Source: an uncultured Arcobacteraceae bacterium
GTDB lineage: Bacteria; Campylobacterota; Campylobacteria; Campylobacterales; Arcobacteraceae
Length of the DNA: 64,000 nucleotides
Assembly (NCBI GenBank): GCA_964022095.1
Contig: CAXHZO010000001.1
Coordinates: forward strand, 320,001 to 384,000
Direction: 5' to 3'
Both the position numbers and the translations under genes were made by a program. The notes beneath the pieces were generated by a model, which was not told the origin of the DNA, ran no database searches, and was given only the letters and a program-made list of their open reading frames with translations. Of this stretch, positions 21,722 through 43,100 are shown one piece after another (position 1 is the first letter of the stretch; each line of letters begins with the position of its first letter).

Positions 21722-21749
21722 ATTAAGAAGAGTTTTCTCTTCTTAATTT
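21722..21749 (+). terminator. Terminator-like hairpin after nrfA
   Basis: ATTAAGAAGAG-TTTT-CTCTTCTTAAT then TT. Confidence 0.7.
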
Positions 21750-21832
21750 CTATTATTTGCAAGTAACATCAAAAAAATTACCTCCTTACTATCTCCTTAT
21801 TTGACAATTTGGTGTTACTTGCAAATAATAGA
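21749..21832 (+). ncRNA. Long hairpin with two anti-SD motifs in the loop (element 1)
   Basis: 25-bp stem 21749-21773/21808-21832 with one U-G; 34-nt loop containing ACCTCCTTA and CTCCTT. Confidence 0.6.
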
Positions 21833-21856
21833 CAAAATATTAAAAATGAGATGATT

Positions 21857-28627: not shown

Positions 28628-28773
28628 AATATCTATCTCCTATAATTTTTTTCGAAATTGTAGCATAAACTTTTTACAATATCTTTTATAAATCAATAAT
28701 TAATAGTTATCAAATTGATAAACTAGTAATATATCTTATGACAAATAACAAAAAATTTTATGAAAGAATATAT

Positions 28774-30051
28774 ATGAAATACAAATTTTTAACAGTTTCT
28801 ATTCCTATTTTGATTTTTATTATCGCATCTTTTTACATTACAGCACAGTTTATAAAACCAAGCCCAAAAAAGGAGATTACAATTGCAACGGGTTCAAAAT
28901 CTGGTCAATATTATCAAACTGCACTAAAATATAAAGAGCTTTTAGAAAAAGAGAAAGTTACAGTAAATATCATAAATACAAGTGGTTCTATTGAAAACTT
29001 AGAGCTAATTCAAGAAAACAAAGCAGATATTGCTTTTGTTCAAAATGGCAGTGTAAAAGATACTAAAGATATTGAAGCATTAGCTTCTGTTTATAATGAA
29101 CCTTTATGGATTTTTTTTAATAACAATATAGAAAAAACAAACTATATAAAAGATTTTGTTGGTAAGAAAATCTCAATTGGGGCTTTTAAAAGTGGAACTG
29201 AAGATTTGAGTTTAGAAGTTTTAAACACAAATGGACTTGATAATTCAAATACTGAATTTGTAAACCTAGATTCAACACAAGCAAAACAATCACTTCTAAA
29301 TGGAGATATAGATGCTATCTTTTTAGTAACATCTGCAAATAATACAATAATAAAAGAATTACTTTTAGAAAAAGATATTTCGCTTTTTTCATTTAGAAGA
29401 GCAAATGCTTATGGCAAAAAGTTTAATTACTTAAATGCTGTGAATCTTCATGAAGGAACTATAAACCTTCATAAAAATTTACCAAATGAAGATAAAAAAC
29501 TATTAGCAACATCAGCTTTACTAATAGCTCATAAAGATTTTTCAGATGAATTAATTAGAATCTTACTTAAAAAAGTAAAAGAAGTACACGCTCCTAAAAG
29601 TATGTTCTCACAAGCAGGTGAATTTCCAACAAAATTTGGAATAACAATTTCTATGAATGAAGAAGCTGACAGATACCTAACATATGGCGATACTTGGTTA
29701 GAGAAGATCTTTCCATATTGGATAGCTTCAAACCTAGATAGATTAAAAATTTTACTAATTCCATTATTAACTTTAATGATTCCTATTTTTAAAGGAGTAT
29801 TTCCTTTATATAGATGGAGTATTAGATCTAAAATTTATAGATGGTATGATGAGCTTCAAGAGCTAGATTTATCTTTAGATGGATTACAAAAAGATGAAAT
29901 GCTTAAAAAAATCGAAGAACTTGAAGTACTAAAAAAAGAGATAAAAGATGAAACAAAAGTTCCATTAGCATATATGGGTGAATATTATGATCTTATTATG
30001 CATATAGAATTAATCATCTCAAAGGCAAATATACGAATTCACGGTGAGTAA
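28774..30051 (+). CDS. TAXI-family TRAP solute-binding protein with C-terminal TM extension
   Basis: ITIATG..G.YY, TSGSIENL, YNEPLW; second TM near the C-terminus. Confidence 0.85.
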   Translation: MKYKFLTVSIPILIFIIASFYITAQFIKPSPKKEITIATGSKSGQYYQTALKYKELLEKEKVTVNIINTSGSIENLELIQENKADIAFVQNGSVKDTKDIEALASVYNEPLWIFFNNNIEKTNYIKDFVGKKISIGAFKSGTEDLSLEVLNTNGLDNSNTEFVNLDSTQAKQSLLNGDIDAIFLVTSANNTIIKELLLEKDISLFSFRRANAYGKKFNYLNAVNLHEGTINLHKNLPNEDKKLLATSALLIAHKDFSDELIRILLKKVKEVHAPKSMFSQAGEFPTKFGITISMNEEADRYLTYGDTWLEKIFPYWIASNLDRLKILLIPLLTLMIPIFKGVFPLYRWSIRSKIYRWYDELQELDLSLDGLQKDEMLKKIEELEVLKKEIKDETKVPLAYMGEYYDLIMHIELIISKANIRIHGE

Positions 30052-30100
30052 TTTTAGCTACTTTTGATATAATATCACCAAAAAATATAAGGACTTTGAT

Positions 30101-31066
30101 TTGAGAATTTTATCAGGTATTCAACCATCAGGAACTATTCATATCGGAAACTATTTTGGTATGGTAAAAAAGATGATTGAATCACAAGATCAGGGTGAAT
30201 TATTTGCATTTATTGCATCTTATCATGCCCTAACTTCAGTAAAAGAAAAAGAGGTTTTAGAGCAAAACACTTTTGAAGCAGCAGTAAACTTTCTAGCACT
30301 TGGAATGGACCCAGAAAAATCTACATTTTGGGTACAGCATCATGTAAAAGAGGTTTTAGAGCTTTACTGGATATTATCAAATCATACTTCTATGGGGCTT
30401 TTAGAAAGAGCTCACTCATACAAAGATAAAACTGCAAAGGGTATTCAAGCAAATCATGGATTGTTTTCATACCCTGTTTTAATGGCAGCAGATATCTTAC
30501 TATTTGATTCAAATATCGTTCCAGTTGGAAAAGACCAAATCCAACACGTAGAGATGACAAGAGATATTGCAAATAGCTTTAATCATCACTACAACACAGA
30601 TATTTTAGTTTTACCTGAAGCGAAGGTTGATGAAGTGGTTGCAACAGTTCCAGGAACTGATGGTGCAAAAATGTCAAAATCGTATAACAACACTATTGAT
30701 ATGTTCAACACTAAGAAAAAAATCAAAAAGCAAGTTATGGGAATAGTAACTGATTCAAAAGAACTTGATGAGCCAAAAGAGTGGGAAAACTGTAATGTAT
30801 ATAAGCTTTGTGAACTATTTATGAACGAAGATGAATTAAAAGAGTTACAACAAAGATATGCAACTCCAGGTGAAGGTTATGGACACTTTAAATTAAGTTT
30901 ATTTGATAAAATCAATGAACATTTTGAACCATACGCTCAAAAAAGAGAGCACTACTTAAACAATCCAAAAGAAGTACATGAAATCTTAGCACATGGTGCA
31001 AGTAAAGCTAAAAAAATAGCTGCTGCTAAAATGGAAGTTATTAGAGATACTGTGGGGTTGATTTAG
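30101..31066 (+). CDS. trpS: Tryptophan--tRNA ligase
   Basis: SGIQPSG.IHIGN, YPVLMAADIL, VPVGKDQ, KMSKS; TTG start; TGATATAAT at 30065-30073. Confidence 0.98.
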   Translation: MRILSGIQPSGTIHIGNYFGMVKKMIESQDQGELFAFIASYHALTSVKEKEVLEQNTFEAAVNFLALGMDPEKSTFWVQHHVKEVLELYWILSNHTSMGLLERAHSYKDKTAKGIQANHGLFSYPVLMAADILLFDSNIVPVGKDQIQHVEMTRDIANSFNHHYNTDILVLPEAKVDEVVATVPGTDGAKMSKSYNNTIDMFNTKKKIKKQVMGIVTDSKELDEPKEWENCNVYKLCELFMNEDELKELQQRYATPGEGYGHFKLSLFDKINEHFEPYAQKREHYLNNPKEVHEILAHGASKAKKIAAAKMEVIRDTVGLI

Positions 31067-31068
31067 TT

Positions 31069-31101
31069 AAAATATAAAAGAGACTTTCTCTTTTATATTT
31101 A
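31069..31101. terminator. Bidirectional terminator-like hairpin after trpS
   Basis: AAATATAAAAGAGA..TCTCTTTTATATTT inverted repeat. Confidence 0.7.
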
Positions 31102-31395
31102 TTTATATTTTTTCCAATCAGATGAATAAAACATTCTAATACTTAATATAGTATATAGAAGACAAATAAATATAATATACTCAAATGATAATTCAAATAC
31201 ACTGTAAAAAAATAATGATGGATATATTATTCCAGAAAAAACAATAGCAATTATTTGTGAATAAAGTAACTCTTGCCAAAAAAGTTTAATCTTAAAAATA
31301 TGTGGGAATAATATTCAAAAAAATAATCCTCCTATATAAGAAGGTATTAAAAATATCAAAATCCATATAAATAAAGACAATTCATTATAACTCAT
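31099..31395 (-). pseudogene. 98-codon membrane-protein ORF interrupted by an in-frame TGA
   Basis: MSYNELSLFIWILIFLIPSYIGGLFF*ILFPHIFKIKLFWQELLYSQIIAIVFSGIIYPSLFFYSVFELSFEYIIFICLLYTILSIRMFYSSDWKKYK*; TGA at 31317-31315. Confidence 0.55.
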
Positions 31396-31469
31396 AAAAT
31401 ACTCTTATTTTTAAGATATACAAAGAATACAATAAATTTTATAAGATTATTATTTAGTAAGATTGATAT

Positions 31470-32162
31470 TTATTTCTTACAAACAAATATCAATTTGTCA
31501 GCATCTTCATCACTATGAAGGTTAAAGTCTCTTATTTCTTTTACTTCAAAACCACATTTTTTAAGTACTTTTTCTAAATACTGTTTTGAGTGATACTCTT
31601 GAGTAATACTATCACTCTCTTTTGTAAAAGTTCCATTATCATTTTGTGTAAATAGCGTGAAATCTGTTTGTAGTTTTTCTTCATCAAAGTTTGCATCAAT
31701 ACCTATAAATCTATTTTCTAAATCTATATTAATACACCCTTGAGCAACCATATCAAAACCAAAGTATGAATTAACATCAAATACAAAGTATCCATCAGTA
31801 TTTAAAACCTCATATGTTTCTTTGATAAAATTTTCTAAGTCATTTTTTGAAATATAGTTTAATACATCAAAAATTGCAGTCGCACAATCAAATTTTTGAT
31901 TAACTTCATTTAGTGGTATAGCTTTTGCGTCTAAGCCTTTTTCTTGACAAACTTTTATTTGCTCAATACTTAGGTCCGTTCCAAAAGCTTTTTTGTCATT
32001 TATTTTAAGATTCTCTAAAAAGTACCCTTGTCCACATCCAATATCAATGATATTATCAAGTTCATTTACCATCACAAACTCCATAAACTGTTTGTGTAGT
32101 GAGTAAACCTCATCCTCGAAATCTAAATATGGCTCTATTTTAGAGTATAAATCTAATCCCAT
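31470..32162 (-). CDS. Class I SAM-dependent methyltransferase
   Basis: IIDIGCGQG motif I, FDVLNY, GYFVFDVN. Confidence 0.9.
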   Translation of the reverse strand: MGLDLYSKIEPYLDFEDEVYSLHKQFMEFVMVNELDNIIDIGCGQGYFLENLKINDKKAFGTDLSIEQIKVCQEKGLDAKAIPLNEVNQKFDCATAIFDVLNYISKNDLENFIKETYEVLNTDGYFVFDVNSYFGFDMVAQGCINIDLENRFIGIDANFDEEKLQTDFTLFTQNDNGTFTKESDSITQEYHSKQYLEKVLKKCGFEVKEIRDFNLHSDEDADKLIFVCKK

Positions 32163-32770
32163 TATAAAGTAGCTTCTATCTTTTCTTTTAAATCTAAGAT
32201 TAAATCTTTTTTAGCATAAAATGAGTTTTTATTAGATATTAATTGAGCACTACTTTCCATAATTGTAGGCCCTACTTCAAGACCGTTTTGTTTCATTGTT
32301 TCACCAGTTTCAACAATATCAATAATACAATCAGAAAGGCCAACTAAAGGTGCAAGTTCAATCGATCCATAAAGTTTAATAATCTCAACTGCCATTGCTT
32401 TTTGCTCAAAATATTTTTTAGCAATCTTCTCATGTTTTGTAGCAACAGTGATTTTACTTTTAGTCATATCAAGTTTTTCACCTTTTCTAAGACCAAAAGC
32501 AACTTTACATTTTCCTAATTGCAAATTTAAAAGTTTGATTAAGTCATACTCTTTTTCTTCAAGCACATCTTGTCCTACAACTCCTAGGTCTGCTGCTCCA
32601 TGCATTACATATGTTGGTACATCTTGGTTTCTTACATTTAAAAATCTAAAACCACTTTTTTCTAAAATTAGTTTTCTGTTTTCAAATACAAATTTTTCGC
32701 CAAAGGCTTTCTCAAATTTATCTAAAGTCTCTTCAGCGATTCTACCCTTTGGTAATGCAATCGTTAGCAT
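32162..32770 (-). CDS. hisG: ATP phosphoribosyltransferase, short form
   Basis: LTIALPKGR, GSIELAPLVGLSD.IIDIVETG.T. Confidence 0.95.
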   Translation of the reverse strand: MLTIALPKGRIAEETLDKFEKAFGEKFVFENRKLILEKSGFRFLNVRNQDVPTYVMHGAADLGVVGQDVLEEKEYDLIKLLNLQLGKCKVAFGLRKGEKLDMTKSKITVATKHEKIAKKYFEQKAMAVEIIKLYGSIELAPLVGLSDCIIDIVETGETMKQNGLEVGPTIMESSAQLISNKNSFYAKKDLILDLKEKIEATL

Positions 32771-33374
32771 CAATAATCCTTTTCATGTTCTCAAATATTA
32801 AATCTTTTTTATATATACTATTTTTAAAATACTTATTTAACATCTTTCCATCACCACCGGTGAAGATAATATTTCTATTTTCACTCACTTCTTTTATAGG
32901 TAAAATGATAGATTTCATTATGGCGTATGTAATAGCATCTTTTGTTTGAAGCGGTATTTTATCTAAATTTATTTTTTTTTCAAAATCAAATTTTAGTTTT
33001 TTTGAGATTTTTGGATAAGTTTTCATAAATGCCCTAAATCCAGGCAATATAAACCCACCTTTGTGTTTTGAATTTTCCATAATATCAACAGTAATTGCAC
33101 TTCCAGCATCAACTATCACTGCATCTTTTTCAAAATAACTCCCTATTGCTCTATCTATTCCAAGCCCTACGTATTTTGTTTTAAAATCCATTAGTTTTTT
33201 AATATTTTTTGCTTGGGGATTAATTTGTTTTAATTTTTTTGATGCAGTTTTATTTACTGATACAAAATATAAGTCATCTTCAAACTTTGGCAATTTTTCA
33301 TCTAAAAAATATACTTTATGTTTTCCATTTATAAAAAAGTGGTAAGTACTATTACCAATATCACATAAAATCAA
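32742..33374 (-). CDS. coaX: Type III pantothenate kinase
   Basis: CDIGNS, GLGIDR, VDAGSAITVD, GGFILPG, TGGDG. Confidence 0.93.
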   Translation of the reverse strand: MILCDIGNSTYHFFINGKHKVYFLDEKLPKFEDDLYFVSVNKTASKKLKQINPQAKNIKKLMDFKTKYVGLGIDRAIGSYFEKDAVIVDAGSAITVDIMENSKHKGGFILPGFRAFMKTYPKISKKLKFDFEKKINLDKIPLQTKDAITYAIMKSIILPIKEVSENRNIIFTGGDGKMLNKYFKNSIYKKDLIFENMKRIIDANDCITKG

Positions 33375-33693
33375 CTCTTACACTCCAACCATTTTCTTTT
33401 AAAAATGCTTTTGCTTTACTACACAGTGGACTTGAAACTAGTAACTCTTTTTTCTTAAAATTATGATCTTCAAAATCTGCTAATTTTCCACAAAGTTCTA
33501 TTAAATCATTAGCATTTTTTCTAATAAATCTACTTTTAGCATCAACTATAAAAATTGCATAGTAGTTCTTTTCTATACTAGTAGCACTATAAATACCTAT
33601 TTTTTTTCTACTTCCCAATTCTTTTGGTGTAACTTCTTTAATATCTTTAAATAATATATTTTTATCATTAAAATATTTTGTTAAATCTTTCAA
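33361..33693 (-). CDS. Hypothetical protein
   Basis: 110-aa ORF overlapping coaX, TTG start. Confidence 0.75.
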   Translation of the reverse strand: MKDLTKYFNDKNILFKDIKEVTPKELGSRKKIGIYSATSIEKNYYAIFIVDAKSRFIRKNANDLIELCGKLADFEDHNFKKKELLVSSPLCSKAKAFLKENGWSVRVDFM

Positions 33694-33819
33694 AACTTTC
33701 CTTTATTAATCGCAATTATAACTAAATTAGACTTTTTCATAGATTCAATGAAAATATCATAAGTTTGACACACTTATTTAGATATAATAATATTAAATTA
33801 ATATAAATAATAAAGTAAA

Positions 33820-34593
33820 ATGCAAGAAATAACCTACAAAGAACAATCAAAAATAACAAGATCAATAATCAAAGCAGCAGTACTTATGTTAGAGTTTGGT
33901 GCAGAAAGTATACTAATAGAGCAAACTGCCCAAAGATTAGGGAAAGCCTTAGGAGTTGATTCTGTTGAAGTATCTTTAATTCCATCAGCAATAGTTTTAA
34001 CTACACTTTATGATGGACAATCAGCAACTACAACTAGAAGTGTTCACCATAAACCAATTAACATGTCAATAGTTTGTGATGTACAACAAATGGTAATTGA
34101 AGTAGAAAAAAATAAATATGATTCATCATGGGTTACAACTCACATGAAAGAGATTCAACCAAACTATTATAATAGATGGATTGTAATACTTATGGTAGGA
34201 CTTGCTTGTGCATCATTTTCTTATCTTTATGGAGCTGATATTTGGGCATTTGCCATCACTTTTATAAGTGCTTGTATTGCAATGTTTATTAGACAAGAAC
34301 TTACAAAAAAAAGATTTATGATGATTATTACCTTTGGGATAACTGCATTTATAGCAACCCTACTTTCTAGTATATCTTTACTTTTTAATTTAACTTCAAC
34401 ACCTAATGTAGTTTTTGCAGCAAGTGTACTTTTACTTGTTCCTGGATTTCCCTTTGTAACATCATTTTTAGATGGATTCAAAGGTTATTTAAGTATGGCT
34501 TGGGGAAGATGGCTTCAAGCTTCACTTCTTACTATCGCTACTTGTATGGGTATCGTTTTAGCCCTTTCTGTATTAAATATAAAAGGGTGGTAA
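33820..34593 (+). CDS. ThrE/YjjP family exporter subunit
   Basis: LEFGAES, VLLLVPGFP motif, C-terminal TMs. Confidence 0.88.
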   Translation: MQEITYKEQSKITRSIIKAAVLMLEFGAESILIEQTAQRLGKALGVDSVEVSLIPSAIVLTTLYDGQSATTTRSVHHKPINMSIVCDVQQMVIEVEKNKYDSSWVTTHMKEIQPNYYNRWIVILMVGLACASFSYLYGADIWAFAITFISACIAMFIRQELTKKRFMMIITFGITAFIATLLSSISLLFNLTSTPNVVFAASVLLLVPGFPFVTSFLDGFKGYLSMAWGRWLQASLLTIATCMGIVLALSVLNIKGW

Positions 34594-35057
34594 TGAGTAT
34601 TTTAGATATTTTTATAAATTCAATGTTTGCTTCAATTGCATCAACTGGATTTGCAATGCTTTTTAATGTACCAAAACATGCTTTAGGATTTTGTGCATTT
34701 GGTGGAGCTATTACTTATCTTATAAAAGATACAGGAATGGATTTTGGATTATCAATTGAACTTTCAACTTTTATTGCTTCAACTTTTATTGGTATTATTG
34801 CTTTAAGATGGTCAAAAAAGTTTTTAATTCCAAGACCAGTTTATACTGTTGCATCAATTATTCCTATGATACCTGGAACTTATGCCTTTACAGCAATGAT
34901 AACTTTAGTTGATATGAACTCACATGGAGTAACACCTGAATTAATTACAATCTTTGTAGAAAATGCATTAAAAGCTATATCAATTTTAGGAGCAATTAGT
35001 TTTGGTTTGGCCTTAACTTCATTATATTATTTAAGATTAAACAGGCCAGTTATTTAA
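34593..35057 (+). CDS. YjjB/ThrE_2 family exporter subunit
   Basis: GFAMLFNVP, IIPMIPG; TAATG coupling to the upstream gene. Confidence 0.88.
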   Translation: MSILDIFINSMFASIASTGFAMLFNVPKHALGFCAFGGAITYLIKDTGMDFGLSIELSTFIASTFIGIIALRWSKKFLIPRPVYTVASIIPMIPGTYAFTAMITLVDMNSHGVTPELITIFVENALKAISILGAISFGLALTSLYYLRLNRPVI

Positions 35058-35059
35058 AT

Positions 35060-36016
35060 CTAGTCTGATTTAACAAGAAAATAAAGCCCAGTAAAAGTAA
35101 CTGCGATTCCAATAATTCCTATACTATTTGGGAATAATCCACTTAAAAATATTACTTCAGCAAAAAGAGTAAATATTACTTCTAAAGATTGTGCAGAATC
35201 AACAACCATAATCTTTGTTGAAGTATTTGCTTTATTTCTTGCATATAAAAAAAGTGAAGTTGCAAAAACCCCTGAAAATAAAGAAATTATTGCAATATTA
35301 GATACTTGATAAACAGTAACAGGAGCTTTTTCAGCAAAGAAAAAAAGTACAATCCATAAAGGAGTACTTCCAAGTACTAATAAAAAAGCTTTTACTAAGC
35401 CATTATTTAAAATATCAAGATTTTCGCCTTTTTCAATTCGTTTTTTCTTCTTTTCCCAAACTAATTGATTACCAAAAGGATAACAAAAAGCAGCTATTAA
35501 AACAGGGAAAAAGCCTAATATAAAAGCGTCTAAATTATCAAAATCAAAGTGACTAAAGTTTACCAATGTAACCCCAGAAAAAATTAAAACACTATAAATC
35601 CAAATTTTCTTACTTAGTTTTTGTCCAAATATCCATAAAACAAAAAGTGAGCAGATAATAGTGATTTGCCAAGTTGTGGCAATAATCCATCCAGGAGAGT
35701 AATCAGCTGAGTAGCAAAGTAAAAAATAGAAAAAACCAAAACCAATAGTTCCAGCAATAAGCCAAAACTTTAAATTTGAGAAGAATTCATTTATAACAGA
35801 TTTATAATATTTGAAACCATTAAATACAATAATAAAAATACTTAAAAAAAGAACGGTAAAAACATATCTAATACTAGCAGCCCAATACCAAGAGATTCCA
35901 TCTAAAGAGTTAGCTCTATTTAATGCAAAAGTAAAACTAAAAAAAAGTGCTGCTAAAATCCCAACAAAAAGTAAGAAAACTGTATTTTGATTATATTTTT
36001 CTAAAAATAGTTTCAT
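35060..36016 (-). CDS. DMT superfamily putative efflux transporter (YjlA-like)
   Basis: FFSFTFALNR, GTIGFGFFY, YPFGNQL; about 10 TMs. Confidence 0.82.
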   Translation of the reverse strand: MKLFLEKYNQNTVFLLFVGILAALFFSFTFALNRANSLDGISWYWAASIRYVFTVLFLSIFIIVFNGFKYYKSVINEFFSNLKFWLIAGTIGFGFFYFLLCYSADYSPGWIIATTWQITIICSLFVLWIFGQKLSKKIWIYSVLIFSGVTLVNFSHFDFDNLDAFILGFFPVLIAAFCYPFGNQLVWEKKKKRIEKGENLDILNNGLVKAFLLVLGSTPLWIVLFFFAEKAPVTVYQVSNIAIISLFSGVFATSLFLYARNKANTSTKIMVVDSAQSLEVIFTLFAEVIFLSGLFPNSIGIIGIAVTFTGLYFLVKSD

Positions 36017-36085
36017 GAATGATTCCTTTGGGCGCAATTATAATTAAAAAGTATTAATATTATTTAAAGTAAAGAGTAAAGAGTT

Positions 36086-36169
36086 TTATACACTAGTGAA
36101 CAGGCATACATTTGAAGTATTGACAAGGAGTTGGGTTGTAGGAAAGTATACCTGCTCACTAATATATAA
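36086..36169 (-). ncRNA. Long hairpin with anti-SD loop (element 3), just past the porin terminator
   Basis: 24-bp stem 36086-36109/36146-36169; all four mismatches are G-U on the - strand; 36-nt loop with ACTCCTT. Confidence 0.6.
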
Positions 36170-36172
36170 TCT

Positions 36173-36194
36173 AAAAAAGGCCGAAGCCTTTTTT
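36173..36194 (-). terminator. Intrinsic terminator of the porin gene
   Basis: - strand AAAAAAGGC-TTCG-GCCTTTTTT with a C(UUCG)G tetraloop. Confidence 0.85.
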
Positions 36195-36199
36195 ATTGA

Positions 36200-37363
36200 T
36201 TAGAATTTATATGAAACATATAATCTTGATCTATAACTTTCAGTATCAATATTATCGTAAGTCGCTAATACAAATTTTGTAGATAAGTTCTCATTAAATT
36301 TGTAATTTGCAATATAATCTGTTTCAGATTTTCTTTCATCACTTCCTGTTTTCCATGCTGCATATATTAAGTTTAATGATAAATCACTATTAACTGCATA
36401 TCCAGCAGATAATTTATACGCATCAGTGTCAGCAGAATAAACTCCACCATAAATATCAGACCATGTGTAAAGGTAATCTGCACCATTCCCTAATCCTGCA
36501 ACTACATCACCTTCATCATCAATTGTAGAGTATGCTGCACCTAAAGATAATGCATCAAAATTAGCTGTTAAATTAACTGCATATGCTTTACCATCAGAGT
36601 CAGTAGCTTCACCATTATCAGTTTGGAATGTTTGTGCTTCAATAGTAAATGGATTTAAGTTATAAGCTGCTGCTGCATAAAATGCTTTTACATCATCACC
36701 AGTTGATGACATCTCATTAATTTGTGCATATTGAGCTTCTAAAGTTAAATTTTCAACAGAGTTATTTTTAACATATAATGTATATGCTCCATCTGCAACT
36801 TGCTCAAATCCAGATACTGCTTTTACATCACTTCCACCAGAAGCTACATCAGTTCTATATTGATATTTGTCAACATATGCTGCAACTAATGTTGTATTTG
36901 GTAAATCAGTATTAGCTAAAACAACACCCTCAAAAGATTCTCTAAAAATTCTAGAACCAGATCCAGCTACTAATGGAGTAGAAATAAATTGTCTACCAAC
37001 TTTAACAGATGTATTACCAGTAGCGTATCCTAAATATACTTGAGATGCAACAGCACCTGAAACATTTTGGTCACTATTGTATGCAGTTGGTGCATCATCT
37101 AAATCATCAGCAGTTACAGTTGCTGCTTGAAAAGTTACTCCTGCATTAAAACCATAAAATGAACCAGTTTCATAAGATAAGTTTCCACCATTAGTCCAAA
37201 TACTTACTTTTTTATCTGATACTTCTTTTTGGAAATATTGAGATTTAATCTCTCCACTTACTTTACCTTCTGCAAATGCTTCTGATAAAGTATCTGCACT
37301 GAACGCTTGAGTTGAGATTAGAGCTAATGTAGCTACTAAACTTAATTTTTTGATTTTTTTCAT
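36200..37363 (-). CDS. Outer membrane porin (OprD/MOMP-like)
   Basis: Signal peptide ending AFSA, VKVGRQ...TPL, terminal RLYVSYKF. Confidence 0.88.
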   Translation of the reverse strand: MKKIKKLSLVATLALISTQAFSADTLSEAFAEGKVSGEIKSQYFQKEVSDKKVSIWTNGGNLSYETGSFYGFNAGVTFQAATVTADDLDDAPTAYNSDQNVSGAVASQVYLGYATGNTSVKVGRQFISTPLVAGSGSRIFRESFEGVVLANTDLPNTTLVAAYVDKYQYRTDVASGGSDVKAVSGFEQVADGAYTLYVKNNSVENLTLEAQYAQINEMSSTGDDVKAFYAAAAYNLNPFTIEAQTFQTDNGEATDSDGKAYAVNLTANFDALSLGAAYSTIDDEGDVVAGLGNGADYLYTWSDIYGGVYSADTDAYKLSAGYAVNSDLSLNLIYAAWKTGSDERKSETDYIANYKFNENLSTKFVLATYDNIDTESYRSRLYVSYKF

Positions 37364-37436
37364 GTTTATCCTTTTTTTACAAATGACAAAAACAATTAAA
37401 GAAATTTATACTTAATTGTTTCAACAAAACTTTCCT

Positions 37437-37526
37437 AATATTCACTGGTCAATAGGCATAACTGTTTTAATATTTGGGAGAACAAATGATTTTATAGCAT
37501 GCTTCTCCTACTCACCAATAAATACT
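37437..37526 (-). ncRNA. Long hairpin with UUCUCCC loop (element 4)
   Basis: Arms 37437-37456/37507-37526; G-U pairs only on the - strand, one G/G mismatch; GGGAG on + at 37476-37480. Confidence 0.45.
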
Positions 37527-37539
37527 TCTCTTTTTTAAT

Positions 37540-39237
37540 CTATTTTTTTTCAAATATCCTTCGTTCAAATAAAGCATCCATATCATCATGGATTTTTGAG
37601 TCTTTATCTAAAAAGATTAATTTATCTTTATTTAACTGTTTTACATTTTTTAAACCCATAACTGCTAATAAACTTTTCATACTTTTTAGCAAATTATTAT
37701 GGTAATTTTTTATATAATCAGAGTGTTTTTTTACAAAATAGTGCTTTCTCTTTTTTATATCTTGTGTTGCAAGACCAACTGGGCATTGATGCTTTGTAGA
37801 ACCAGAGCAGTATCTTGCTCTAATACACCCTGCACTCATCATAAAACCTCTAGCAATTTGTACAAAATCAGCACCTAAACTTAAAATAATTACAATATCA
37901 TCAGGCGTCAAAATTTTACCACTTGCACTTATTTTCACTAAATCTCTAATCTCATAATCTTTTAATACTTTATCAACTAAATAAACAGCATCTCTAATAT
38001 CCATACCAATTCTTTCCATCATATCAAGTGGAGCTGTAGCACTTCCACCACTACCTCCATCTATAGATATATAATCAGGATAAGGTAAGTTCAAGGTTGC
38101 TCTTCTTTTTATCTCTTTTGCAATAGGAACAATATTGTCATAATCTGATATAACTATTTTAATGCCAACTGGTTTTTTTGATTCCTCTTGTAATGTTCCA
38201 ATAAAATCAAATAACTCTTCTAAACTGTTTGCATATGGAAACCTGTTTGGAGAAAATGCATCTTTGTATGCTTCAATATTTCTATAATATGCAATTGATG
38301 GTGTTACTTTTTTTGCAATTAACTTTCCACCTGTTTGTTTTGCACCTTGAGCAATTTTTATTTCTGTCATTTTACAAAAGCTCATTTGTTTTTTATATCT
38401 TTGAATATCAAACTTACCATCTTTAGTTCTTACACCATAAAAACCTGAACTTATTTGTAAAATAATATCAGGCATATCAGCAGGAACTTCTTTAGGGAAA
38501 GCCTCAATTGGTGCATCCCAGTTTGGTCTATAAAAACATTCATTTTGCTTATTAAAGACATATGTATCTGCTAAAGGATCTTTTCTAAATACTAGTTTTC
38601 TATAAAAATCAACTGCAACTGGAAAGTTAAAGAAAAACTTTGAAAGAGCAAAAACTTTTTGTTCAAATTTATTTCCTTTTACTTGCGTTATATATGCTTT
38701 ATCATAATCATTATGTGTAACGAAAAAGTTTGAAGTTAATCCACCTTCTCCACTATTTATAGGAAATTTAGCCATTTGTGAGCCTTGAACAAATGCTCTT
38801 GTTCCTTCTGGGGAAATAGACCCATCACTCATAGGAGCTCTAGCTATTATTGAAGATGTTACAAAAGGTTTTTCTCTATCTTGTCCAAATACAATTGAAA
38901 AATCATTTTCTACTTCATCATCATTTAAAACAATATTTGTATGTCTTAACATAAATTTTGGTTTAGGAAGAGGTTGGCCAGGAGAGAAAGATGAAAAATT
39001 TACTTTATCCCTTGATGCACTATAAACCCAATCAAGTTTATCCATTGATTCATAGAATTTTTCATCACCAAAGTATTGTCTAAAAGGTTCTCTAAACTCT
39101 TGAAAAACAAATCTTAATCTTCCAATAATTGGATAATTAACTAAAATTTGATGCTTTCTTTGAACATACTTATCATGTACATACCAAGCAACCATCACAA
39201 TTATAAAAAATAAGAATACAAATATCCCAGCTGTCAT
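37540..39237 (-). CDS. FMN-binding glutamate synthase family protein (YerD-like)
   Basis: N-terminal TM, NYPIIGRLR, NSGEGG, EIKIAQGAK, DGGSGGS, CIRARYC...CPVGLATQD. Confidence 0.9.
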   Translation of the reverse strand: MTAGIFVFLFFIIVMVAWYVHDKYVQRKHQILVNYPIIGRLRFVFQEFREPFRQYFGDEKFYESMDKLDWVYSASRDKVNFSSFSPGQPLPKPKFMLRHTNIVLNDDEVENDFSIVFGQDREKPFVTSSIIARAPMSDGSISPEGTRAFVQGSQMAKFPINSGEGGLTSNFFVTHNDYDKAYITQVKGNKFEQKVFALSKFFFNFPVAVDFYRKLVFRKDPLADTYVFNKQNECFYRPNWDAPIEAFPKEVPADMPDIILQISSGFYGVRTKDGKFDIQRYKKQMSFCKMTEIKIAQGAKQTGGKLIAKKVTPSIAYYRNIEAYKDAFSPNRFPYANSLEELFDFIGTLQEESKKPVGIKIVISDYDNIVPIAKEIKRRATLNLPYPDYISIDGGSGGSATAPLDMMERIGMDIRDAVYLVDKVLKDYEIRDLVKISASGKILTPDDIVIILSLGADFVQIARGFMMSAGCIRARYCSGSTKHQCPVGLATQDIKKRKHYFVKKHSDYIKNYHNNLLKSMKSLLAVMGLKNVKQLNKDKLIFLDKDSKIHDDMDALFERRIFEKK

Positions 39238-39299
39238 TTTTAATCCTAGTTTATTTTATATAAAATCATATCAATAAAAAGTGTCTAAAAAGTAGTCAT

Positions 39300-40166
39300 T
39301 TAAAAACTATTAATTAAACCTGCAATTACGACACAAAAAAGACCTACTATATAAGCTGTTTGAAGAGGTTCATTAAAAAACATGATCAAGTAAACAGCTG
39401 ATATAATGGGCGTTAAAAATATAAATGGTGCTAAAAAAGATGCTTGAGTTAACCTCAATGCATTTATCCAAAATAGATATGAAAACCCATTAATTAAAAC
39501 ACCATTTAATACTACTGGTAAAAGTTCATTTGTTGTTGGTAATAAAAAAGAAGAAAAGTAGTTCATTGAAAAAAATGAAGCCACTGTAGCACTTAAAAAA
39601 TATATACTAATTGCACTAATTGGTTCATACTTAACTTTTTTTCCTAAAATAGAAAAAAGAGCAAAAGAGCTTGCACCTAAAAATACTAAAAAGATTACAT
39701 AAGGATTATCTAAATAAACTTTAGAAAAATCACCTTTTGTTAAAACAAAAATTACACCAATAAAACCAATAATAATTGATAATACTTTTTGTAAAGTTAA
39801 TTTCTCATTTAAAACTAATAAAGATAAAAAAACTATAGATATAGGCCATGTATATTGTATAACTAAAACCTCTAAACCTTTAGCTTCTTTATATCCTAAA
39901 TACAAAAAAAGATAGTATATATATGTTCCAAGTAAACCTAAAACAATTAATATAAGCCAATCTTTTAGTTTGTACTGTTTAAAAATTGCTATTTTCTTTT
40001 TTATTAATGCTGTACTAAACAAGCAAATAAACGATATCAAACTAGACCAAAACAAAAATTGATGATTATCCATATTTACTTGTGCAAGTTTTGCAACTAC
40101 AGGAATCATAGCCCATAAAATCACACAAATAAATACTAATAAAATTGCTTTTGTTCTATTTGACAA
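39300..40166 (-). CDS. EamA/DMT family transporter
   Basis: About 10 TMs, IQYTWP, duplicated EamA pattern. Confidence 0.88.
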   Translation of the reverse strand: MSNRTKAILLVFICVILWAMIPVVAKLAQVNMDNHQFLFWSSLISFICLFSTALIKKKIAIFKQYKLKDWLILIVLGLLGTYIYYLFLYLGYKEAKGLEVLVIQYTWPISIVFLSLLVLNEKLTLQKVLSIIIGFIGVIFVLTKGDFSKVYLDNPYVIFLVFLGASSFALFSILGKKVKYEPISAISIYFLSATVASFFSMNYFSSFLLPTTNELLPVVLNGVLINGFSYLFWINALRLTQASFLAPFIFLTPIISAVYLIMFFNEPLQTAYIVGLFCVVIAGLINSF

Positions 40167-40199
40167 AAAACTACCTTTAAAATAAGAAGTTAAACCTTC

Positions 40200-43100
40200 T
40201 TATTTTACTTCCCTTGCTCCAATATTTCCATATCTGTGGAATGAGTGAGAAACTGATTGTTCTTGGAAGTAGTTTAATAACTCTAATCTTCCCTCCATCA
40301 TTGGTTCTTGTCTTACAATAAATGTTAAACTTTCTGTTGCTTTTTCAAATACTTTAGTAGGAACTTTAGAAACACTTGAGTAGATAACTCTTTGATAATT
40401 AGAAATTGTTGACATAAACTGATCATCAGTTTCAATAGCAATTGAATCACCTGCCCCAAATAACTCTTTAGAGCTTTCTAATAATTTTTGAACTTCTGAA
40501 TTGTTGTTAATTGAAACTTTAAAATTAACACCAGAAACTTTTGCTGCTAAAATTCTAGATACTGATTCAAATATAGTATCATCACTACTTACTCTAATAA
40601 CAACTTTCTTTAAAGGAACATATCTAAAGTGATTGTCTTCACCTCTTACTTCACAATAATCTTTTTCAACACTAAACTCATCTTCATAGTTTTCAAGATA
40701 TGATTGCAGTGCAACTGATAATTTTTCAAATTCATCTTTATTTGATCTAGTTTGTTTACAAGTATCAATAAATTTTGTTAACTCATTTGTATATCTTCTT
40801 TTTACTTTTGGAACTGATTTTTCTGTAAAGTTAACAAATTGAGTTATATAATTGTAAATACCAACTTTTCTACCTGCTCCAATTGCAGATTTACCCATAC
40901 CACCAAATGGCTGTCTTAATACGATTGCACCAGTTGTCCCTCTATTTACATAAAGATTCCCAGCTTTTAAATTTGCTTTCCAGTACGATACTTCTCTTTC
41001 ATCTAGTGATTCAATTCCAGAAGTTAATCCATATCCAGTAGAGTTTACAATATCAATTGCATGCTTTAAATCTTTTGCTTTCATTACAGCAAGTACTGGT
41101 CCAAATAACTCATTCATATGAATAAAGTTACCCTCTTCAACTCCCCATTTAATTGAAGGCTTTAACATAAACTCATTATCATCTGCATACTCAGGAGCTA
41201 ATAACCATGATTCATTTTTTTCTAATGATGAGATAGCTTTTTTAAGATTACCTGATACTGGATTTGCTAAAGTTCCTATTTTATTAGAAAAGTCCCAAAC
41301 CGTACCAACACTCATAGAACGTGCAGTATCAACTAAAGCTTTTTTAAACGCTTCATCATTATAAACTTCCTCTTCTAAAACTAAAAGTGAAGTAGCAGAA
41401 CATTTTTGTCCTGAGTTGTTAAATGCACTTAAACATACATTTTTAACTGCTTGTTCTCTATCTGCCATATTTGTAACAATTGTTGCATCTTTTCCACCAG
41501 TCTCTGCAGTTAATAATAAATCTGGTCTAGTTTTTAACATAGAAGCAGCTGTATCTTCACCACCAGTTAAAATTACAAAATCAACATCTTTATTAGCAAT
41601 TAAATGCTCACCTGCAAGTGCTCCTGGACAAGGTGCAAACTGTAAAACATTTTTTGAAATTCCAGCATCCCAGAAACATTTACACATTTCATATGCAGTT
41701 AATGCTGCAACTGAAGCTGGCTTGATAATAACAGTATTACCAGCAGATAAAGCAGATGCAACTCCACCTAAAGGAATAGCTACTGGGAAGTTCCATGGTG
41801 GAACAACAACTCCAACACCTTTACCTGTAAATTCTAAGTTTCCATACTGTTCCCAATGACCAGCACTGTGTGCATAAAATTCGATAAAGTCAACTGCTTC
41901 TGATACTTCTACATCAGTTTCTGTAAATATTTTCCCAACTTCAGCAGCGGCAACACCAATTAAATCATCTCTTCTTTCTCTAACTTTTATTGCAGCTTCT
42001 TTTAATAAGGCATGTCTTTGTTTATTAGTTAAACTTCTCCAACCATCAACATCATCTTTTGCTACTTGTACTGCTTTTTGTAAATCTTGTGCAGTTGCAT
42101 TTGCAAATTTACCTGCAAGTACTCCTTCTTTTAATTGAGATTTATCAATAGCATCTACTATTTTTCTATCTCCAATTAAATCTTCACCACCAATTACAAC
42201 TGGAGCAACTTCATGTTGTGTATCTTTTGTAAACTTCCATTTTTTTACAATATTTCTTGCCCACTCTTGGTTATTTGGTAAAACAAAATCAGTATCAGCT
42301 TCAGCGTGGTATTCTCCTAAATCATAAGAAGAGCCTTTAAAATCATCCCACTTTTCATTTAATCTATCTTGTGTTCTTTTTGCACCTACAAAAGAAGTTT
42401 TTTCATTCTCAAAAGATTTTAAGAATAACTCTTTTTGCATTTTCCAATCCCTTGAACCAACTTGTAGCCCAAATGAATATCTAATAAAGTTATCATCACC
42501 CGTATTTTCATCTAATCTTCTAACTAAATAGGCAATTGCATTTGTAAACTGTTCTTTTGCAGCTGTTGGAGCATATAAAATTACAGTTTTTGAAATTTCA
42601 TTAATTGCAAGTCTTGCAGACTCACTCATACCTTCTAACATTTCTAAAGTATGATATTTTGTAGTTCCAAACTCTTGAGCTAATTGTGTTGCAAATGCTA
42701 ATTCAAATAAGTTATGTGATGCTGTTCCAATATGCATGTATGGTGCATTTTCTGGATTTAATGCAAACCTTGCCATTCTCTTATAGTTTGAGTCTGTATC
42801 ACTTTTATCTGTATAAGTTACCATTTCCCAATGTTTTTGACTAGCTTCAGTCTCTTCCATTTCCATATTAGCACCTTTTACAAGTCTAAACTTGATAGGA
42901 CTTCCACCATTTTGAACTCTATTTTTTGCCCATGCACATAAATCTTGTTGAACTAAGAATGAATCAGGAATATAAGCTTGAAGTACAATACCTGCATAAA
43001 AGTCTTTAAACTGTGGTAAGTCTAATGTTCTTTTAAATACCTCAACTGTGATATCTAAATCTCTATACTCTTCCATATCAAGATTGATGAACTTATTTGA

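Follow-up and report, generated by a model that had tools for sequence, protein, structure and literature searches.

Among the small RNAs of Campylobacterota, CJnc190 of Campylobacter jejuni and RepG of Helicobacter pylori are reported to pair, through the C/U-rich loop of a hairpin, with G-rich ribosome-binding or leader sequences, and RNase III is reported to produce mature CJnc190 from a longer precursor with internal pairing (PMC8687705). CJnc230 (FlmE) is a small RNA reported to arise by processing of the flgE mRNA at its 3' end (PMC11187230). In Staphylococcus aureus, the 3' UTR of icaR is described as carrying a UCCCCUG anti-Shine-Dalgarno motif which pairs with the ribosome-binding site of its own mRNA, so that a substrate of RNase III is formed (PMC3868564). 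Correia repeat-enclosed elements of Neisseria are described as intergenic, co-transcribed units of about 100-150 bp with terminal inverted repeats, whose hairpins are bound or cut by RNase III (PMC2649163).

The element analyzed here, about 80-105 nt in size, resembles by analogy the known C/U-rich-loop and 3'-end-derived RNAs of Campylobacterota and may be akin to them in kind; it differs from them in its long helix, its rule of placement, its confinement to a single locus and the presence of copies behind terminators. With CJnc190 and RepG it shares the phylum and an accessible C/U-rich hairpin loop. However, those two are separate genes with promoters of their own, whereas the element has no evident promoter and follows stop codons or terminators, has a much longer basal helix, occurs one to three times at one locus and shows no sequence or Rfam match to them. 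CJnc230 is a single-copy RNA of the flagellar regulon, with neither homology nor locus in common with the element. Unlike the icaR motif, that of the element lies in the loop of a long self-contained hairpin, and the element loops are predicted to pair with the ribosome-binding region of the upstream gene no better than background. Correia elements are mobile, with many scattered copies per genome; in contrast, the element has 1-3 copies, one gene neighbourhood across genera and a conserved, strand-specific loop. Of the marks of Correia/ERIC-type repeats, terminal inverted repeats were found and many scattered copies were not.

A long hairpin behind a porin terminator

The window, i.e., the whole stretch of DNA analyzed (64,000 nt), comes from an uncultured Arcobacteraceae bacterium. 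The element under study, E3, lies there among the following features:

36086..36169, minus strand: E3 hairpin (5' arm 36169..36146, loop 36145..36110, 3' arm 36109..36086)
36172..36195, minus strand: intrinsic terminator behind the porin gene, 3 nt ahead of E3; stem of 10 pairs, UUCG loop and U6
36200..37363, minus strand: porin gene (387 aa; OprD/Porin_4 in Pfam), with E4 upstream and E3 downstream
36042..36037, minus strand: TATAAT box between E3 and the EmrE/EamA gene, from sequence reading only
35060..36016, minus strand: EmrE/EamA-type transporter gene, downstream of E3

A first-pass annotation had described a 24-bp hairpin 3 nt past the terminator of a porin gene, with four non-Watson-Crick pairs that were all G-U on the minus strand and with the C-rich loop patches UUCCU, ACCC and ACUCCUU. 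The arrangement was borne out by the sequence, a terminator scan and a diagonal count, the nature of the four pairs by the pair count, and all three patches are present in the loop. The gene upstream is indeed a porin gene by Pfam (OprD 2.9e-10, Porin_4 6.9e-07), and its stop codon TAA lies at 36202..36200 of the minus strand. AGA (3 nt) separates the terminator from the 5' arm of E3 (TTATATATTAGTGAGCAGGTATAC), while the 3' arm (GTATGCCTGTTCACTAGTGTATAA, 36109..36086) gave one match at that place with 0 expected. On the minus strand the stem has 24 uninterrupted pairs (20 Watson-Crick, four G-U and no A-C), or 27 pairs once one mismatch is passed. The loop of 36 nt contains CCC and CUCCUU, and its inner 30 nt hold 12 C and one G.

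The minus-strand RNA of 36070-36215 folded at -43.6 kcal/mol, as compared to -16.6 +/- 3.1 kcal/mol for its shuffles (z = -8.8; none of 200 as good); the plus-strand RNA of the same stretch reached -30.8 kcal/mol (z = -2.4; 4 of 200 shuffles as good). Moreover, hairpins of 24 consecutive pairs (at most four G-U pairs, loop of 15-64) number only three in the 2.57-Mb genome, namely E3, E1 (introduced below) and an unrelated one on contig 12, and none was present in any of five same-size first-order Markov genomes.

The porin terminator (AAAAAAGGCTTCGGCCTTTTTT; also written AAAAAAGGCUUCGGCCUUUUUU) was the sole terminator-like site found by the consensus scan in 35900-37700. From its sequence it is canonical and should stop most transcripts. 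Since E3 sits 3 nt past it, E3 RNA could arise only via read-through of the terminator. No U-run was seen 3' of the 3' arm of E3 (AAAACUCUUUAC) and none in 17 other copies inspected; thus the element itself is not an intrinsic terminator.

Related hairpins in the window

E3 as a porin-specific feature was considered and rejected: the usual position of the element is right after the stop codon of a gene with a Glu_synthase domain, with no terminator in between. In the window this position is held by a second hairpin, E4, and a third one lies at some distance on the other strand:

37437..37526, minus strand: E4 hairpin, homologous to E3, starting 13 nt past the Glu_synthase-domain stop codon
37389..37422, minus strand: AT-rich hairpin with a U-rich run after E4, weakly terminator-like, from a minimum-free-energy fold only
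37540..39237, minus strand: Glu_synthase-domain gene (565 aa; PF01645), the commonest gene before the element in other genomes
21748-21833, plus strand: E1 hairpin, between the nrfA terminator, which it directly follows, and a ResB/cytochrome c assembly gene

The order on the minus strand is a Liv-type amino-acid ABC transporter, PutA, EamA, the Glu_synthase-domain gene, E4, porin, terminator, E3 and EmrE/EamA; the consensus terminator scan made no call for the AT-rich hairpin at 37389..37422. E4 was found by the genome-wide hairpin scan, and its position after the Glu_synthase-domain gene is the one conserved across genera. Its stem of 20 pairs comprises 15 Watson-Crick pairs, four G-U pairs and one G-G mismatch, and its 50-nt loop contains UUCUCCC. 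E3 and E4 align at 78% identity: three stem pairs have changed on both sides yet remain paired, and three G-U pairs stand at identical positions. The arms of the two were not found elsewhere in the genome. That E3 is fully paired though only 78% identical to E4 argues that it is still under selection.

Contigs of four DNA runs covered 35850-37650 in fragments. One of them, from run X4, joins 37378 to 37546 via 159 different letters; the whole E4-bearing stretch would thus be replaced in some related organism. The match is of low likeness and may stem from another species.

E1 has a 25-pair stem with one G-U pair, a 34-nt loop with the anti-Shine-Dalgarno-like ACCUCCUUA and AUCUCCUUA, and a fold z of -8.7. 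A blastn search for its relatives in 150 genomes gave short terminator-like matches only. Its inner stem departs from the family consensus, and E1 would be either a distant copy or a look-alike.

Distribution of the element

Covariance model R1 was built from E3 and E4 only, and model R2 from 10 copies. R2 scored E3 at 77.8 bits and E4 at 70.3 bits, and, with filters off, E1 at 36.5 bits on the plus and 21.6 bits on the minus strand. R1 found full-length matches in seven further genomes from the family, which makes 8 of 151 with the source genome. R2 raised this to 14 of 151 genomes and 6 of 22 genera, in a sample of a larger group and with a search pre-filter which missed E1; in the two fully searched genera the matches were in 3 of 8 and 4 of 25 genomes. 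On the other hand, none of 140 sampled genomes from other families of the same order had an R2 match. Among 33 metagenome loci encoding the Glu_synthase-domain protein, R2 found six further copies in five loci.

A pattern was run against 185,579 species genomes and gave 25 stretches: i) three true matches, at 82-104 bits with R2, all in records titled Arcobacter sp.; ii) three at 33-35 bits on both strands; iii) 19 without an R2 match. The three stretches of 33-35 bits were rejected as copies, being of higher G+C and from other phyla, and are chance palindromes selected by the pattern. As an observation in its own right, these palindromes (L098, L101 and L108, from records titled Phycisphaeraceae and Ktedonobacteraceae) show the inner-stem pattern, and the two in Phycisphaeraceae records may be a separate repeat family. 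Viral contigs gave two pattern matches, neither of which matched R2.

With 36040-36240 as the query, blastn against 40 relatives gave only 3' ends of porin paralogues and AT-rich noise and no hairpin; in the two best matches a porin paralogue is directly followed by another gene. The Rfam 15 search of 30000-42000 (E up to 1) returned only an unrelated, sub-threshold S15 leader match at 38877-38943, and at six loci (E1 and five other copies) nothing reached the gathering score: the only matches there were animal microRNA-precursor models at 31-35 bits (thresholds 89-97) and IS009 at 20.5 (threshold 117). A search of the literature on Arcobacter small RNAs found no relevant paper among those listed, which is not proof of absence. 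The hairpin is a real, conserved, strand-specific family without an entry in Rfam 15.

The source genome has three copies, all within 16 kb, and other genomes have one or two in the same gene neighbourhood. An orthologous Glu_synthase-domain gene (at least 78% identity) was present in 28 other genomes: 10 have an adjoining copy, one (G060) has a copy 2.7 kb downstream of the gene, and the other 17 have none within 1.5 kb of the gene with filters off. Glu_synthase-domain paralogues form two clades in the bacterial family, at 78-88% and 50-72% identity to the copy in the window (37540-39237), with a further paralogue at 22097-23761 of contig C24 of G000. The element was found only near the first of these clades.

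Conserved stem and C-rich loop

Our set of 24 copies comprises 23 different sequences, as G141 and M118 are the same. All stems have 20-35 pairs but that of G138, which has 13, and a mismatch close to the middle of the stem is common. The outer half of the stem is variable and covaries, while the inner half is conserved in sequence (GAGYAGGYAUA / UAURCCURYUC). As conservation of sequence is here added to that of pairing, the inner stem is not what plain selection for a structural RNA predicts; possibly a protein or a second partner recognizes it.

The loops are 25-58 nt long and hold 242 C and 81 G in 980 nt (24.7% C versus 8.3% G), in a genome of 27.9% G+C. CUCC occurs in 17 of the 24 loops and GGAG in none, CCC in 19 and GGG in none. 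The common core is YCUCCUU, preceded in many copies by CCCCAU(A/U)UG and presumably similar to the anti-Shine-Dalgarno sequence of 16S rRNA; a search for the 16S rRNA 3' tail in the source assembly with three short motifs found none. In minimum-free-energy folds the C/U-rich motif is unpaired or apical.

Other features of the loop were tried and rejected. No conserved apical helix is proposed, since the loops of the copies fold in different ways. On the antisense strand the loop has AAGGAG, but neither start nor frame of a small ORF is conserved, and on the sense strand the ATG/TTG frames vary in frame and length between copies. As for a promoter within the loop, a TTGACA-like sequence is present in E1 and E3 and not conserved in other copies; the promoter scan gave 11 sites against 10.5 in shuffles, i.e., no excess.

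Selection on the gene-sense strand

Alignment A6 holds 18 copies, with E1 partly misaligned. In it 90.4% of the stem cells pair, as compared to 77.3% when the 3' letters are shuffled (a value of 90.4% was reached in none of 500 shuffles), and sliding the partners by 1-3 columns drops the pairing to 29-47%. The covariation analysis that the first-pass annotation had suggested thus yielded compensatory changes: 16 of the 25 pairs (66 cells) have changed on both sides. Over the 24 copies the stem cells comprise 500 Watson-Crick, 62 G-U, 12 A-C and 28 other combinations, counts which overstate the independent events since the copies share ancestry and sense-strand copies served to build the models. 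Several columns run through a C-G / U-G / U-A series (for example 5/7/4 and 7/5/3), as would be expected of a sense strand that has to remain folded. Moreover, of 22 distinct copies the sense fold is the more stable one in 16, the antisense fold equalling or exceeding it in the other six, and in all 24 copies the flanking genes lie on the strand of the element.

This comparative evidence shows that a hairpin formed by single-stranded nucleic acid of the gene-sense strand is under selection. An RNA had been proposed for E3 at the outset. The part of this proposal that stands is a single-stranded nucleic acid of the porin-sense strand, as covariation, G-U bias and the strand of 24 of 24 copies indicate. 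The other part, that the carrier is RNA, is the likelier reading and is not proven: a single-stranded DNA hairpin of the same strand, in which G-T is the least harmful mismatch, gives the same bias.

Placement at gene ends

The element starts 3-19 nt after a stop codon, with nothing between, in 14 of the 24 copies. Nine of these 14 follow the Glu_synthase-domain gene (E4, G106a, G113a, G069, G145, G160, G166, M126a and M112); the others follow the Glu_synthase-domain gene (one, L113), a chemoreceptor gene (two) or a gene of 276 aa (two). Seven listed copies, six of them distinct, lie behind an intrinsic terminator: E3 after porin, E1 after nrfA and five after putA. The remaining copies are two at 84 nt after a sensor-like gene and one at 147 nt after a porin gene. 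Three of the 24 copies (G106b, G113b and M125) lie between convergent genes; thus the element belongs to gene ends and is not a leader of the downstream gene.

The surrounding genes form an amino-acid-utilisation cluster (putA, EamA, the Glu_synthase-domain gene, porin and chemoreceptor). The order of Glu_synthase-domain gene, element, porin and second element recurs in metagenome locus L126. In G106 the order is Glu_synthase-domain gene, element, porin, chemoreceptor and second element, and in G113 it is the same without porin. Four congeners lack the element (L057, L059, L060 and L061; G018, G053, G085 and G097): there a spacer of 11 nt with GAAGGAA leads from the Glu_synthase-domain gene to the chemoreceptor gene, which by its length would make the two one tight operon. 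Where the element is present, the distance from the Glu_synthase-domain gene to the next gene is about 190 nt, versus 11 nt. No alignable empty site was found in the four congeners; the whole intergenic region and the downstream gene differ.

A candidate RNA module

The evidence inclines us, though not strongly, to read E3 as a member of a family of structured RNA modules that are conserved at gene ends and would act post-transcriptionally; as a class, the element is most likely a regulatory RNA module that follows genes of an amino-acid-use locus in some relatives of Arcobacter. This reading builds on the observed structure, conservation with covariation, strand bias, position rule and loop motif. 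The module would be transcribed as the tail of the mRNA of the upstream gene, E3 via read-through of the porin terminator 3 nt upstream, and its long helix may mark or protect the mRNA 3' end. An RNase III site needs a double helix of about two turns, i.e., ~20 bp or more, a length that the stem reaches in 23 of 24 copies (20-35 pairs); the helix is thus long enough for such a site, and RNase III may cut it. The exposed C/U-rich loop may pair with G-rich RNA, e.g., ribosome-binding sites. As for the neighbouring genes, the loops of E3, E4 and E1 ranked their ribosome-binding regions at the 24th to 79th percentile among 2349 genes. The neighbours thus pair no better than background, and action in cis on them gains no support.

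A more specific version, to which we assign a small chance, is that the hairpin works like a bacterial microRNA precursor, being released by RNase III and silencing mRNAs in trans through its anti-Shine-Dalgarno-like loop. It would then be a portable module, co-transcribed with any preceding gene; one RNase III cut would both set the 3' end of the mRNA and free a small hairpin RNA, and copies on both sides of a porin or chemoreceptor gene would excise single-gene mRNAs from a long transcript. Expression of the amino-acid-use locus would so be coupled to translation elsewhere, in a lineage without Hfq. To our knowledge, Campylobacterota lack both Hfq and RNase E.

If the broader reading as a regulatory RNA module holds, the element adds a new, conserved RNA motif to a bacterial family almost without described regulatory RNAs. 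Its covariation support already equals that of many accepted motifs, and its placement rule, a few nt past stop codons or behind terminators, is unusual. If true, a further regulator encoded at a 3' end would be known, one that has an anti-Shine-Dalgarno-like loop and probably depends on RNase III, and the element offers a handle on the control of the putA, Glu_synthase-domain, porin and chemoreceptor cluster.

Alternative readings

A signal for termination or insulation, in which the C-rich loop loads Rho or the hairpin is a pause or back-up stop against read-through, would suit several of the observations: the position is always at a gene end (a terminator directly precedes seven listed copies, six of them distinct, and three of the 24 have convergent genes on either side), the C:G ratio of the loop is 3:1, and in one genus the relatives without the element have an ordinary AT-rich hairpin at the end of the chemoreceptor gene. 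However, the missing U-run in the 18 copies inspected speaks against an intrinsic terminator, and a Rho loading site measures about 70-80 nt, more than the 25-58 nt of the loops. Moreover, the conserved stem sequence and the YCUCCUU motif would be left unexplained, and we consider such a role unlikely.

Action at the DNA level would make the element a remnant miniature inverted repeat or a hairpin recombination site, duplicated around inserted genes (porin, chemoreceptor). The closest model of the latter kind is the attC of integrons: these sites are imperfect palindromes right after the stop codon of each array gene, conserved in structure over sequence and folding into a hairpin on one strand. 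They have RYYYAAC...GTTRRRY boxes, extrahelical bases and an unpaired central spacer, and it is their bottom strand that is used. In contrast, the helix of the element is uninterrupted and lacks boxes and extrahelical bases, and its favoured strand is the gene-sense one; on inspection of the alignments by eye, the arm ends are UGUAUC...GAUACA or similar, with no bulges. The 28 proteins scanned from 17144 to 49094 include neither an integron integrase nor any recombinase or transposase domain, and at most two copies stand in a row.

Apart from attC, a DNA element would account for near-perfect inverted repeats of 20-28 bp in a unit of 80-105 bp with arms about 90% paired, for the patchy occurrence within genera (3/8 and 4/25) and for the pairs of copies that flank porin (the window and L126), chemoreceptor (G113) or both (G106). 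A conserved arm sequence suits what a recombinase or transposase needs, and a G-T bias also arises in a hairpin of single-stranded DNA. On the other hand, there are only 1-3 copies per genome, unscattered and in the same neighbourhood across genera, and the difference between genomes that have the element and those that lack it extends over the entire intergenic region (about 190 versus 11 nt) and is not a clean insertion with target duplication. Besides, the two pattern matches on viral contigs failed model R2, and terminal inverted repeats do not require a conserved, strand-specific loop motif. Action as DNA thus appears quite unlikely to us; if it did apply, a low-copy hairpin marking gene boundaries with no recombinase nearby would be stranger still.

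For E3 alone, one may suppose a decaying, functionless and untranscribed duplicate of E4 behind an efficient terminator, as only 3 nt separate it from a canonical terminator, it has four G-U pairs where the best-kept copies have one or two, and the cognate position is empty in G069 and L112, in which porin is followed by a convergent gene. Neutral decay, however, would break pairs, whereas the 24 pairs of E3 are uninterrupted although it is only 78% identical to E4, with three pairing-preserving double changes, none of its four non-Watson-Crick pairs is A-C, CCC and CUCCUU are kept in the loop, and L126 also has a second, diverged copy after its porin gene; we hold such decay to be very unlikely. 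Finally, that the arms are double-stranded DNA binding sites for a regulator of the putA, Glu_synthase-domain and porin cluster is highly improbable: despite inner arms conserved across genera, the restriction to one locus and a frequent position 40-145 nt upstream of the next start codon, it gives no reason for the excess of G-U over A-C, the compensation through G-U intermediates or the strand-specific C-rich spacer, the spacing of the half-sites varies from 25 to 58 bp, and three copies have no downstream gene to regulate.

Other hairpins

Some further hairpins were observed in passing. At 28832-28935 (minus strand), a hairpin of 21 pairs, its 62-nt loop including AUCUCCUUUU, lies antisense inside the ORF 28738-30051; at 10.9 bits with R2 it is probably due to chance. 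In G049 (L048, about 1610-1700 and 1440-1500), the element is flanked on both sides by long hairpins with C-rich loops (UCCCUACAUCCC and CUCCAAAACUC), and a U-run follows the last of the three hairpins, all between putA and the Glu_synthase-domain gene; from their arrangement the three look like one multi-hairpin RNA. Outside the window, a second hairpin family was seen in G000 at 8637-8779 of contig C12 and 57892-57980 of contig C10, with arms such as TATTTAGTATATAAG(C/T)TAAA and loops of 33-43 nt; one of its copies is the third 24-consecutive-pair hairpin of the genome, and its sequence is unrelated to that of E3.
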